Shown piece after piece: positions 18,977-36,069 of a stretch of DNA of 42,793 nucleotides. Numbering within the stretch: position 1 is the first letter of the stretch; each line of letters begins with the position of its first letter. Made by a program: the position numbers and the translations under genes. This DNA comes from a virus (taxonomy: Duplodnaviria; Heunggongvirae; Uroviricota; Caudoviricetes). The notes under the pieces were generated by a model. It was not told the DNA's origin. It was given only the letters and a program-made list of their open reading frames with translations, and made no database searches. The stretch lies in the IMG/VR virus record IMGVR_UViG_2667527787_000008, one strand, 5' to 3'.

Positions 18977-19067
18977 AGTGTCAACGCTATGGACAAACTC
19001 ATCTTTATGGCTACATCCCCCGGAGGGGATGCGTAAAAGGCTTAAGAAAAATGATTTTGAAAAATGC

Positions 19068-19328
19068 TTATTGTGCTCTGCCTAGTAGAGCAGCGACTCT
19101 CTCGTTTAATTTTTCTAGGTATCCATCTTTAGCGGGAATGTCGAATTCGATGGGGTCGGCCTTAGAAACCCCTTCTAAATAAACATCTCCGAGGTGAGTT
19201 TCTTTCCCCACAACTCCGTTTAAAGCCGTTGATAATACAGCAATAGCAACACGAGAAGCGTGGCTGTGTAACTGTAACTCTTCAACCAAATCCTCAAGAT
19301 GGGCAATTCTTTTTTCTACATCTGACAT
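19068..19328 (-). CDS. Hypothetical antisense moron protein (86 aa)
   Basis: Minus-strand ORF between the lysis and packaging modules; N-terminal coiled-coil-like segment; lower GC than flanks. Confidence 0.45.
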   Translation of the reverse strand: MSDVEKRIAHLEDLVEELQLHSHASRVAIAVLSTALNGVVGKETHLGDVYLEGVSKADPIEFDIPAKDGYLEKLNERVAALLGRAQ

Positions 19329-19464: not shown

Positions 19465-20172
19465 ATGGCAAAACCGGACTGGGGAAGCCTCCAAAGACGG
19501 TTCCTCGCCGAGCATGCCAAAACAGGTATATCGCCGAAAGAATGGTGCGAAGCGCAGGGACTGAATTATACATCTGCGCGCAGGTACATCAAAAAGCCTG
19601 CTGCGCAAAAAACTGCGCAAAAGGATGTGCGCAAAACTGCGCAAAGCCAGATGCCGCATGTAGTAGTGGTTGAAGCCTCTACGCCAGTTGAGGGCGATAC
19701 TGCGCAGGAAAACGCAGGCATCCTTAAACCACAGCATGAGCAGTTTGCGCAGAACATCGCGCGGGGCATGCCGCAGAAAGAGGCGGCGATATGCGCGGGC
19801 TATTCGCCTTCACGCGCTGATTCCCAGGCATCGATACTTTTCAAACGCCCGGATGTGCGCAGGCGCATCAGAGAGCTGCGTCAGGATGCCGCTCTGCTCG
19901 TATCATTCGACGCGAAAGACCTGGCTGAACTCTCCTACAAATCGGCGAAAGCCGCGCTGGACGCTGAGAAGTTTGGGCAGGTAGCCCCGAACATCAAAAA
20001 CGCCGCGCAGCTCACCGGCATCGACATGAGCAACAAAACGGAAGTGAATGTCGATCTGGCTGGCCTGAGTTACGGAAAGGTCTGCATCGTCACGCCGTCG
20101 AACTGCCCGCCTGAAGCGTGGGCAGCGCACATGGATAAGCTGCGCGAGGGAAAGCAGACAGCCCAACAATAA
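19465..20172 (+). CDS. Terminase small subunit
   Basis: 235 aa; N-terminal HTH-like region and motif [47 protein letters not shown] typical of small terminase subunits; directly upstream of the large subunit. Confidence 0.7.
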
Positions 20173-22904: not shown

Positions 22905-23498
22905 CGCCCGGCTGATAGATTACTCGCTGCTGATTGACGACTGGGCCGACCGGGTAGCCAAACGCATGTTCCTGCAGGTTGAGCAGGAGGAGTGGAACCA
23001 GTGGCGCTCTGTGTCGCAGGAAATCTCTGAGGGGCTGCGGGATGTTGTCGGCAATACGCCGGTGGGGTTCGTGGCTCAGGACATCGTATCCCGCAGGTGC
23101 AGCTGATTAAATCTCTTCCGCTGGAAGCTGCCGACCGCGTTCGTGACATCCAGGAGCGCGCAATGGAAGCCGTCATAAACGGTGAGCGCCCCGACGCGCT
23201 CTATCGGATGATTATGGAGTCCGGCGACGTGGCAGAGAGCCGCGCGAAGATGATCGCCCGCACCGAAATCGGCCGGGCCACGACAGCGCTCACCCAGGCG
23301 CGCGCTGAGTCGATTGGCTCTGAGGGCTACTGGTGGCGCATCGAAGGGGCCGGAACGCGCGATTCACATCGCTGGATGAAAGATAAGTTTGTGCGCTGGG
23401 ATAACCCGCCGACGCTGGACGGTATGACCGGGCACGCCGGGTGCCTGCCGAACTGCAAATGCTGGCCGGAAGTGCAGGTGCCAAATCCCAGGAAATAA
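22741..23498 (+). pseudogene. Mu F-like head morphogenesis protein split by a -1 frameshift (pseudogene or sequencing error)
   Basis: Track ORFs 22741..23106 and 23097..23498 lie in frames differing by -1; the second carries the Mu F-type motif RAKMIARTEIGRATT...GYWWRIEGAGTRDSHRWMKDKFVRWDNPP...HAGCLPNCKCWPE. Confidence 0.5.
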
Positions 23499-23507
23499 AA
23501 AAGCCAT

Positions 23508-23526
23508 CACAAGGATGGCTGGGAGG
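23508..23526 (-). terminator. Rho-independent terminator for the antisense moron
   Basis: Hairpin AGCCATC-ACAAG-GATGGCT followed on the minus strand by UUUUUUAUUU. Confidence 0.45.
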
Positions 23527-23535
23527 GAGGCTTTC

Positions 23536-23733
23536 TCAATCTACATAAACCCTGAATTGAGCTGAATTACCCTCTACGGCATCAATGCGAGCGTTCACCC
23601 CGAGCGCTGCAAGTTGGTCTTTGATTTTGGTGTAACGCTCGCCCTCAACATAGTCATTGTTGAGGCCAGTGGTGCGTGACCACTCATCTGCCATGCGATC
23701 CATCTTCGCTAACAATTCTGCTTTAGTGCTCAT
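23536..23733 (-). CDS. Hypothetical antisense moron protein (65 aa) inside the head module
   Basis: ATG at 23733 with strong AAGGAG ribosome-binding site; own terminator; MSTKAELLAKMDRMADEWSRTTGLNNDYVEGERYTKIKDQLAALGVNARIDAVEGNSAQFRVYVD. Confidence 0.5.
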   Translation of the reverse strand: MSTKAELLAKMDRMADEWSRTTGLNNDYVEGERYTKIKDQLAALGVNARIDAVEGNSAQFRVYVD

Positions 23734-23851
23734 TTCAAAACTCCTTTTGGTGGTGGGAATCAATGTTCATGTTTTCACTATCGAATTTAGAGTGTCAAGG
23801 CCGAAAATTAGTGGTGAAGAGCTCGTGCTAAAGCATTAGATAAACCCCAGT

Positions 23852-23876
23852 GGCCGCTACTGCGCGGCCTTTTTAC
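23852..23876 (+). terminator. Putative intrinsic terminator upstream of the scaffold gene
   Basis: Hairpin GGCCGC-TACTGC-GCGGCC followed by TTTTT. Confidence 0.4.
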
Positions 23877-23900
23877 TGCCCGCAATTCAGCAGGTAACCC

Positions 23901-25154
23901 ATGAAATACTTCTTCATTACCCGCCTTGGCGAAACGCGCTACCAGCTGGCGGACGGCTCCCTGCTGTGCAAAGACGTCCCGATCGCCCGCACCGGCACGC
24001 AAACCTATCTTCCCGAAGAAATCGGCCTTGAGCCTGGCGCAGATGGGCTGGTGGTCATCTATCGCACCGAGGACGAGGTTTTCTCTCCAGAGACTATGGC
24101 GAGCTTCGAGGGCATGGCGGTAACGCTGGATCACCCGGAAGACGGCGAAGGCAACATCGTTTTCGTTAACCCGGCGAACTTCGCGGAGCTGGCCCATGGC
24201 CATATCCAGAACGTCCGCCGCGGCACCGGCGATAAAACCGACCTGTTGATCGCTGATGTGCTGGTGAAGCGGCAGGAAGGCATCGATGCGGTCAACGCTG
24301 GTAAAAACCAGGTCAGCTGTGGCTACGACGCCCAGTACGTGCAAATCGGCCCGGGCAAGGGCAAGCAAACAGAAATCACAGGAAACCATCTGGCCATCGT
24401 TGATAAGGGCCGGGCGGGCTCCCGCTGTGCAATCGGGGATTCGGCCCCATCAAAACCAAAGGAGAAGCCTGCAATGTCATGGCTGAAAAAACTGGCTCAG
24501 GCCATTAAGACGAAAGATGAGGACGCGCTGACGAAGCTCATCGATGAAGCGCCGGACATGCCATCTGACGGCATGGGTTCCATCCCCGGCGTAACCATCA
24601 ACATGAACGTGCCTTCACAGGCTACCGCGCTGCCAGCAGACCAGAAGACCACGGTCGATGAAGATACCGATCCGGAAAAGAAAACCGGTGATGAAGAGGC
24701 GCCCGCCTGGGCGCAGGCTCTGATTGCTCGACTCGATAAGCTGGAAGGCAAAACTGGCGATGCTGATCTGGACGACGAAACCAAAACCGGTGACGAAGAC
24801 GCGAAAGAGGATGCGAAGGTAACCGGCGATGCGGCCTATAAGCGCAACATCATCGGCGACGCAGAGATCATCTGCCCGGGCTTCCAGCCTGCCGGCGACA
24901 AAGGCCTGAAGCGTCAGGTACTCAACCAGGCGCTGCGCACAGGCGACAGCCTGAAGGCGTTTGGCATTTCCGACTTCGCCAAAGCGCCGAAGGCCACTGT
25001 CGATGCGGTGTTTAAGGCTGCAGTCGAGATCAGTAAGGCAAAGAACCGCATCACCCCGCCTTCAGGCAAACCAACTGGCGACCGCGCCCGCGGCCCAATG
25101 TCCCCGGCTGAGTTGAACAAAATCAACGCCGAATTCTGGAAACGTAACAAATAA
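23901..25154 (+). CDS. Putative head scaffolding / prohead maturation protein
   Basis: 417 aa; acidic, Lys/Asp-rich low-complexity C-terminal half typical of scaffold proteins; upstream of the capsid genes. Confidence 0.5.
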   Translation: MKYFFITRLGETRYQLADGSLLCKDVPIARTGTQTYLPEEIGLEPGADGLVVIYRTEDEVFSPETMASFEGMAVTLDHPEDGEGNIVFVNPANFAELAHGHIQNVRRGTGDKTDLLIADVLVKRQEGIDAVNAGKNQVSCGYDAQYVQIGPGKGKQTEITGNHLAIVDKGRAGSRCAIGDSAPSKPKEKPAMSWLKKLAQAIKTKDEDALTKLIDEAPDMPSDGMGSIPGVTINMNVPSQATALPADQKTTVDEDTDPEKKTGDEEAPAWAQALIARLDKLEGKTGDADLDDETKTGDEDAKEDAKVTGDAAYKRNIIGDAEIICPGFQPAGDKGLKRQVLNQALRTGDSLKAFGISDFAKAPKATVDAVFKAAVEISKAKNRITPPSGKPTGDRARGPMSPAELNKINAEFWKRNK

Positions 25155-35718: not shown

Positions 35719-36069
35719 TTACTCGTCTTTAAAACTTATAATTTTGTACTGCTCCAGTACTTCTGAAAGCTCCTTTGATGTCAGATTTTGTATTTCGATC
35801 GTACCTTTTTCAGTGGTTACCGTTATTTTTTTTGATGATCTGGTCTGTAACCATTTTCTCGCTATCGATGCAATGGCGATACAAGCTGGTGATGATGTGA
35901 TAACGGTAATAGATATTTCGAGAATTGTGCCAATAGCGCCAGGAGAATCACCCGTTCTGACTCTTTTACTTACTACATAGTCATTAGCGGGTATGTTATC
36001 CTGGATTACAGGAAGTAACTCTTTCCAAATAGCTGGAGTAAATTTTATGGTTGTTTCTGATTTTGGCAT
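35719..36069 (-). CDS. Hypothetical antisense moron protein (116 aa) inside the baseplate operon
   Basis: ATG at 36069; AT-rich; convergent with the secreted-protein gene; no recognisable family. Confidence 0.45.
   Translation of the reverse strand: MPKSETTIKFTPAIWKELLPVIQDNIPANDYVVSKRVRTGDSPGAIGTILEISITVITSSPACIAIASIARKWLQTRSSKKITVTTEKGTIEIQNLTSKELSEVLEQYKIISFKDE

Follow-up and report, generated by a model that had tools for sequence, protein, structure and literature searches.

A candidate antisense moron in a cargo slot of the head-gene operon of an Escherichia coli prophage

A reversed gene in a variable slot of the late operon

The 42,793-nucleotide (nt) viral sequence IMGVR_UViG_2667527787_000008, referred to at its full length as the window, was identified as an Escherichia coli prophage, and the subject of this study is a small gene cassette that lies reversed in its long plus-strand late operon, between the gene for a Mu F-like head morphogenesis protein and a DUF2213 gene. 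A reading made from the DNA letters alone (the original prediction) had placed a 65-amino-acid (65-aa) minus-strand gene between the Mu F-like and "scaffold" genes, and the open reading frame (ORF) was found there, running from an ATG at 23733 to a TGA at 23538–23536 (coding sequence 23536–23733, minus strand, stop codon included). It encodes a small acidic protein of 65 aa that starts with MSTKAELL and ends with RVYVD. The identical gene has been annotated by NCBI PGAP as WP_053271619.1, a hypothetical protein, and a literature search found no paper mentioning this accession.

A search of 5.8 billion proteins first recovered homologues in seven clusters, all of exactly 65 aa and with 71–100% identity. 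Between the window and the diverged loci, the ratio of nonsynonymous to synonymous substitution rates (dN/dS, Nei-Gojobori) was 0.07–0.20 at dS values of ~0.2 to >1, and synonymous sites were near saturation across the diverged copies. The ORF was therefore conserved both in its constant length and in its amino acid sequence, a point on which the original prediction had made its case depend, and judged from these comparisons it is a genuine and old protein gene under purifying selection. On seven contigs carrying diverged members, the gene always lay on the opposite strand between the Mu F and DUF2213 genes, and this placement held even where the terminase genes differed. Since the divergence of the small protein (71–92% identity to the window) was similar to that of the flanking head proteins (63–97%), the gene has long travelled with this head module, diverging in step with it. 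Of 5426 complete E. coli genomes, 5 contained the gene, as did 3 IMG/VR viral contigs; no copy was found among 50,697 phage records and 72,556 plasmid records. An identical cassette is carried by the lysogens NCTC11023, Res13-Sevr-PER07-33, PSJ-22, ES7 and COL60J. Short metagenome contigs considered as possible transcripts proved to be ordinary low-coverage DNA contigs of the same architecture.

The gene is contained in an inserted cargo segment of ~352 bp (23499–23850), with a G+C content of 45–51% as compared with ~60% in the flanks. The distance from the Mu F to the DUF2213 gene was 402 bp in the window versus 51 bp in both the phage Mulock and the ST540 prophage, which lack the segment, and other cargo took its place in loci L016–L021. 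This comparison with insert-free relatives, which the original prediction had proposed as a check, supported its description of a self-contained antisense insert of the moron type, in that relatives have the slot either empty or filled with other cargo and the base composition of the insert deviates from its surroundings. The insert contains a single gene, on the strand opposite to the head genes, and no second ORF, so that no Aca helix-turn-helix regulator follows it. Mulock is an isolated temperate myophage in which lambda-like functions are combined with the same type of morphogenesis module (PMC6856289), and on the evidence of such viable relatives without the 65-aa gene the cassette is shown to be dispensable.

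At the right end of the junction, a terminator-type hairpin followed by T5 (23852–23874, plus strand) was detected by the terminator scan and by folding. Its stem-loop, GGCCGC-TACTGC-GCGGCC (23852–23869, −14.4 kcal/mol), is followed by TTTTT and ends 26 nt before the DUF2213 ATG at 23901. The leader and translation-initiation region of DUF2213 in between, ACTGCCCGCAATTCAGCAGGTAACCC (23875–23900, plus strand), is almost invariant in all relatives, whether they carry cargo or none. The sequence directly after the Mu F stop codon of Mulock is C-AGGCCGC-CAATGA-GCGGCCT-TTTC-AATGCCCGCAATTCAGCAGGTAACCC-ATG, that is, the same hairpin and leader. The hairpin and T-run were retained at the DUF2213 junction in every cargo variant examined, including E. 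coli LHM10-1 (L018), where the stem sequence is entirely different and the form of a hairpin with a T-run is kept. The original prediction had described a plus-strand terminator hairpin just before the scaffold gene in its account of the self-contained moron; the hairpin is present, but its assignment to the cassette was rejected because phages without the insert, such as Mulock, possess it. The hairpin is instead an ancestral phage-backbone element of the Mu F/DUF2213 junction, and the insert therefore spans ~23499–23850, between the Mu F stop codon and the pre-existing hairpin.

Because the prophage encodes a Q antiterminator, we propose that the backbone hairpin may block stray transcription without Q and be read through with Q. 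As a separate observation, a nearly invariant 26-nt leader, TGCCCGCAATTCAGCAGGTAACCC, together with a terminator-type hairpin precedes DUF2213 in L002 and L016–L021, with cargo or with none, and a conserved terminator ahead of abundantly needed head genes is an unexplained arrangement.

The slot was surveyed with an artificial "empty site" query joined from both flanks, the hits being inspected, and six states were seen. It was empty, with the 51-bp gap, in Mulock, the ST540 prophage and many others, and held the 65-aa antisense gene in the window prophage and its relatives. A 139-aa forward gene occupied it in E. coli GZ2408P (L016, 938–1357), whose Mu F gene is 92% identical to that of the window, and a 64-aa forward gene, located after the hairpin and not before it, was found in Klebsiella phage ST16-OXA48phi5.2 (L020, 938–1132); neither cargo gene had a match in Pfam or PHROGs. 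In E. coli LHM10-1 (NZ_CP037903; L018, 909–1018), the slot carried a tRNA-like gene of ~110 nt, annotated as "tRNA-OTHER", which scored 31 bits against the Rfam tRNA model (gathering threshold, 29), was not called by ARAGORN, and may be a tRNA with an insertion. The sixth state was a 261-nt AT-rich insert with no ORF longer than 33 aa, found in two E. coli prophages and Yersinia phage YP3 (893–1153 in each of L017, L019 and L021) and 96% conserved among them, which had no Rfam match and a folding energy that was not unusual (z = −1.0). From these comparisons, the Mu F/DUF2213 junction is judged to be a cargo hotspot, a slot prone to swapping.

As for the surrounding prophage, the region of interest was matched at 99.8–100% identity by five complete E. 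coli chromosomes, and an annotated copy (NZ_CP062811) adjoins yciI and tonB. Its early genes are Rac/lambda-like, including RecET, a repressor, replication genes O and P, and RusA, and a gene for a Q-type antitermination protein lies upstream of the late genes, followed by the lysis genes. The plus-strand late operon then encodes the small and large terminase subunits, a DUF1073 portal, the Mu F-like protein, the DUF2213 protein, a cement protein, a DUF2184 major capsid protein, and a contractile tail; among described phages, temperate Klebsiella myophages such as Mulock are the closest. The right flank of the cassette, the DUF2213 (Pa193_gp24) gene (23901–25154, plus strand), is of the protease/scaffold type (Pfam DUF2213, E = 2e-42; PHROG 1961; PHROG 530), and since PHROG 530 is labelled "head maturation protease", the name "scaffold" is only approximate. 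The left flank, the Mu F-like gene (22966–23498, plus strand; Pfam Phage_Mu_F, E = 1.5e-13), is broken in the window by a 1-nt deletion near 23094 (TCCCG-CAGG versus TCCCGCCAGG in relatives), and relative to NZ_CP062811 this frameshift leaves ORFs of 121 aa and 133 aa in different frames. As each of the five complete E. coli genomes that contain this prophage has the extra C and an intact 177-aa gene, the window copy either belongs to a defective prophage or contains a sequencing error.

Predicted expression signals of the cassette

The 170 nt upstream of the ORF were aligned for five loci. The strong AAGGAG ribosome-binding site named in the original prediction was read directly at 23746–23741 (23741–23746, minus strand), 7 nt before the ATG, and the block AAAGGAG was kept in the alignment. 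Further upstream, a putative −35 element, TTGACA (23793–23798, minus strand), matches the consensus perfectly and lies 18 nt upstream of the −10 hexamer, with CTTGACA invariant in the five loci. The putative extended −10 element, TG-A-AAACAT (23769–23777, minus strand), falls in a block, ATGAAAACAT, that is likewise invariant in the five loci amid diverged neighbouring bases. In addition, a conserved box, CTTCACCACT (23810–23819, minus strand), precedes the −35 element and reads CTTCAC(C/T)ACT in all five loci, again with diverged surroundings; it may serve as a site for a regulator or as an UP-like element. Since a working promoter would be expected to leave such a pattern of conservation, we infer that the blocks form one, with a spacer of 18 nt between a perfect −35 and an extended −10 element. 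The layout had been missed both in the original prediction and by a consensus scan, in the latter case because the −10 hexamer matches at 3 of 6 positions. An operator-like inverted repeat in the promoter spacer (CACTCT...ATAGTG) was dropped from consideration, as it was not conserved in the L004 group.

Downstream of the ORF, the intrinsic terminator attributed to the gene was recovered at 23492–23520 (minus strand) by scanning, folding and conservation in relatives. It consists of a 7-bp stem-loop (23520–23502), AGCCATC-CTTGT-GATGGCT, and the T-tract TTTTTTATTT, with a folding energy of −9.6 kcal/mol (z = −2.4). In the relatives, the loop has changed, and in L004 and L005 a pair at the base of the stem has undergone a compensatory double change from A-U to G-C. 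Since the T-tract overlaps with the stop codon that ends Mu F on the opposite strand, the predicted transcript ends within ~10 nt of that stop codon and would be confined to the insert, barely overlapping the head coding sequence and not running antisense to it.

In the surrounding 2.5 kb, four terminator-like sites were observed versus 2.8 expected from shuffled sequences, so that pattern matching alone was no better than chance. Because the scan by itself was not significant, we relied on the comparison with relatives, and the cassette elements are credible because the promoter boxes, the ribosome-binding site and both hairpins are conserved amid diverging sequence. A small RNA in 23764–23875 was also considered and rejected: Rfam returned only sub-threshold hits (asX2, 20 bits; isrD, 14 bits), and no plus-strand promoter was called.

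The protein and its distant homologues

The 65-aa protein has an isoelectric point of 5.0 and a grand average of hydropathy of −0.57, and contains no cysteines and no hydrophobic segment; the whole family is acidic, hydrophilic, cysteine-free, and without transmembrane segments. A first AlphaFold2 run on 7 close sequences reached a predicted local distance difference test (pLDDT) score of 66, which rose to 91 when remote homologues were added. The resulting model (pLDDT 91.3; predicted template modelling score 0.74) comprises two helices (residues 3–20 and 28–43) and a beta-hairpin of two strands (48–53 and 56–64). The most conserved residues lie in the inter-helix connector and at the start of helix 2, and E30 is the only invariant polar residue; W18 and Y34 are invariant as well.

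The structure prediction suggested in the original prediction thus yielded a confident two-helix and beta-hairpin model with no informative structural neighbour, fold searches with it returning only generic helical hairpins or insignificant matches. No match was found for the window protein or for 17–19 family members in Pfam, PHROGs, NCBIfam or PADLOC, in agreement with the earlier remark that the protein has no recognisable motif, and a sequence-profile search of the PDB with the 65-aa protein was also negative.

An exhaustive profile search of 1.84 billion representative proteins returned only 12 matches. The remote ones include proteins of 64–75 aa with 30–40% identity that share the motif W-x5-(H/G)LSNDYSEGxRY, and narrower alignments added three identical viral contigs and one Methylobacter locus. 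In Marinomonas sp. TW1, the homologue lies in an accessory island in the tail region of a P2-like prophage, where it adjoins an nSTAND3/Mrr-type gene and forms a monocistronic unit with terminators on both sides. On a phage-like contig, a Gp49/HTH_37 (HigBA-like) gene pair immediately precedes it. A conjugative element (L014, L015) carries it in antisense orientation, with a type I restriction-modification/Phd region on one side and traG on the other. The Methylobacter homologue is chromosomal and adjoins hrpA, with no obvious mobile context. The distant homologues thus appear to be stand-alone single genes, usually on mobile elements and without a conserved neighbour, and such contexts speak against both a function in assembling heads and membership of a fixed two-gene system.

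One further protein (P0016, 235 aa; loci L024 and L025) was found to be a family member fused to an extra C-terminal domain of ~160 aa. From its sequence, this domain was suspected to be HEPN-like, but no Pfam family or PDB entry matched. It also occurs as a stand-alone unannotated family (P0021–P0032) in variable regions, beside a resolvase or PIN_10 gene, and in three loci examined no separate 65-aa family member was present beside it; the fusion was considered uninformative.

Proposed function, alternatives and significance

Taking these data together, we consider it somewhat better than an even prospect that the cassette is a moron, namely, an autonomous single-gene cassette sitting reversed in a cargo slot of the late operon, expressed in the lysogen or early in infection and silenced late, whose product has a protein-binding role outside the head. 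In the proposed mechanism, host sigma-70 RNA polymerase would transcribe the cassette in the lysogen and right after DNA entry, giving a monocistronic mRNA of ~270 nt (~23762 to ~23495) for a small soluble acidic protein of two helices and a beta-hairpin. After induction, Q-modified late transcription would cross the cassette head-on and ignore both hairpins, a readthrough made plausible by the Q-type antitermination protein that the prophage encodes. The cassette would then be silenced by promoter occlusion, polymerase collision and formation of double-stranded RNA, so that cassette and head genes would never be expressed together. The protein would most likely bind another protein through the helix-helix connector GL-x-NDY-x-EG-x-RY and would not act in head assembly; its target is guessed to be a protein of the host or of a competing mobile element, with exclusion, defence or defence inhibition as the outcome. 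Antisense accessory genes with their own promoters in the lytic regions of Salmonella prophages are known to be expressed in lysogens (PMC7067206), and nested antisense genes in phage 80alpha give reciprocal regulation (PMC11087260).

Several points weigh against this interpretation. The −10 hexamer is weak, and the promoter was not called by the consensus scan; it could need an activator, given the conserved box upstream, or could be silenced by H-NS within the AT-richer insert. The contexts of the homologues are heterogeneous and one of them is ordinary chromosomal DNA, so a role in conflicts between mobile elements is only a guess, and no homology or fold match points to any molecular activity. 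Furthermore, that the gene has remained with the head module while both diverged substantially could also reflect a module-bound function.

In its overall layout, the cassette resembles the morons that Juhala, Hendrix and their colleagues reportedly defined in lambdoid and HK97-type phages: an extra gene between genes that are adjacent in relatives, with its own (here putative) promoter and a factor-independent terminator, deviant in base composition, and dispensable. It differs from them in that its 65-aa product belongs to no described moron family and that its expression in the lysogen is a prediction. With STMMW_20121 of ST64B, an antisense accessory locus of a Salmonella prophage, it shares the orientation antisense to lytic genes (PMC7067206). 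With the noncontiguous operon ith/tha of the staphylococcal phage 80alpha, it shares an antisense gene with its own (here putative) promoter nested in an operon, an arrangement in which two transcription states can exclude each other, following the switch from lysogeny to lysis; in 80alpha, however, the antisense gene overlaps its partner's coding sequence, and its product inhibits a defence gene of that same operon, whereas the transcript predicted here is confined to the insert (PMC11087260).

A narrower form of the moron interpretation, in which the protein is an immediate-early, anti-CRISPR-like inhibitor of host defence that is made from a constitutive promoter and acts at infection, is possible but doubtful. 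The equivalent slot of the Mu-like Pseudomonas aeruginosa phages JBD30 and D3112, after a Mu F/G-type gene and before a protease/scaffold gene, is the anti-CRISPR region, which is likewise variable, of low G+C content, and filled with small proteins in varying combinations (PMC3993853, PMC4378225). A small, acidic, cysteine-free and soluble protein, a family found on phages and on a conjugative element, and a predicted promoter that needs no phage factor would all be in keeping with such a function. The anti-CRISPR genes of those phages, however, are co-oriented with the head genes and followed by aca1, whereas the present gene is single and antisense, is accompanied by no Aca-type helix-turn-helix regulator, and is similar in sequence neither to them nor to anything annotated. 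Because orientation, operon structure and sequence all differ, the parallel is best regarded as an analogy and not as membership. The homologue on the conjugative element lies beside a cluster of restriction-modification and ATPase defence genes of the same element, which gives no clear sign of an anti-defence role.

Another arrangement that may be compared is that of the defence and cargo hotspots of P2-like phages and P4-like satellites, reportedly described by Rousset et al. in 2022. They share with the present slot a fixed position between conserved genes and many alternative, unrelated cargos in otherwise related elements, and differ in phage group and position; the cargos here are of 0.1–0.5 kb, and none matched a known defence system. 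As a speculation that we hold to be rather unlikely, the 65-aa protein might found an undescribed family of small acidic inhibitors (two helices and a beta-hairpin, with W...LSNDYSEGxRY) in phages, conjugative elements and a few chromosomes, neutralising a specific bacterial immune or competitor protein, and the Mu F/DUF2213 junction of these lambda-like myoviruses might be a hotspot of counter-defence, as the anti-CRISPR locus is in Mu-like Pseudomonas phages.

It appears improbable that the transcript matters and not the protein, so that antisense transcription would tune or block the late operon, either of the resident prophage by transcriptional interference or of a superinfecting relative by an exclusion effect of antisense RNA. 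The cassette is convergent with the late operon, antisense RNA opposite structural genes is known to exclude the superinfecting phage BTP1 (PMC7067206), and promoter-driven interference occurs in noncontiguous operons (PMC11087260). An RNA function, however, would explain neither the strong purifying selection on the amino acid sequence, nor the length fixed at 65 aa, nor the conserved Shine-Dalgarno sequence, nor the protein homologues in unrelated genomic settings, and the terminator would leave the transcript complementary only to a non-coding part of the late mRNA.

A role in stabilising the prophage, either as one component of an addiction or toxin-antitoxin module or as an immunity protein or orphan antitoxin, is very improbable, since the cassette is strictly monocistronic between two hairpins and lacks any partner gene. 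Many antitoxins are likewise small and acidic, and two homologues have suggestive positions, one directly after the Gp49/HTH_37 pair and another near a Phd/YefM gene; the neighbours, however, are not conserved across contexts. Nor is the protein hydrophobic, so that it is no type I toxin, and no Pfam toxin or antitoxin family matched. As for features of a type I system in the insert, no Rfam match was above threshold and no plus-strand promoter was called.

Finally, the gene might encode a dedicated factor of the head module that happens to lie on the other strand, such as a regulator or chaperone of Mu F, of the DUF2213 protein or of capsid assembly. This would account for the constant position of the gene and for a divergence that parallels that of the portal, Mu F, DUF2213 and capsid genes even in loci with a different terminase, but it is most improbable. 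Viable relatives lack the gene (Mulock; PMC6856289), unrelated cargo can occupy its slot, remote homologues occur in elements without capsid genes, and a predicted host-type promoter on the strand opposite to the head genes is the wrong regulation for a late assembly factor.

Two other antisense genes were seen in the window. A self-contained one lies inside the baseplate genes (~35719–36069, minus strand); it is annotated in the identical prophage as "effector-associated constant component EACC1" and has its own G+C-rich terminator (35714–35696) directly after the stop codon. A third antisense gene, hypothetical and of 86 aa (~19067–19327, minus strand), separates the lysis genes from the small terminase gene, and upstream of it are, on the same strand, a near-consensus promoter (TTGATG, 16 nt, TATAAT; 19592–19565) and a cluster of TTGCGCAG hairpin repeats, the repeats being at 19600–19643.

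The original prediction was thus essentially right except for the ownership of the plus-strand hairpin, and the cassette would be an ordinary antisense moron that carries a member of a rare, uncharacterised protein family. Antisense morons in late operons are well documented, and in this respect the finding will not surprise phage biologists. If the gene is expressed as predicted, it would add one more lysogen- or early-expressed small protein to the repertoire of E. coli prophages, and its confident predicted fold without an informative structural neighbour makes the protein an inexpensive candidate when screening for binding partners. Of greater use is the slot itself, which is precisely bounded by the stop codon of Mu F on one side and the backbone hairpin on the other, and in which Mulock-related phages swap small cargos: a conserved non-coding element, a tRNA-like gene, and protein genes of three unrelated kinds. 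Such hotspots have been productive places to seek defence and counter-defence genes.

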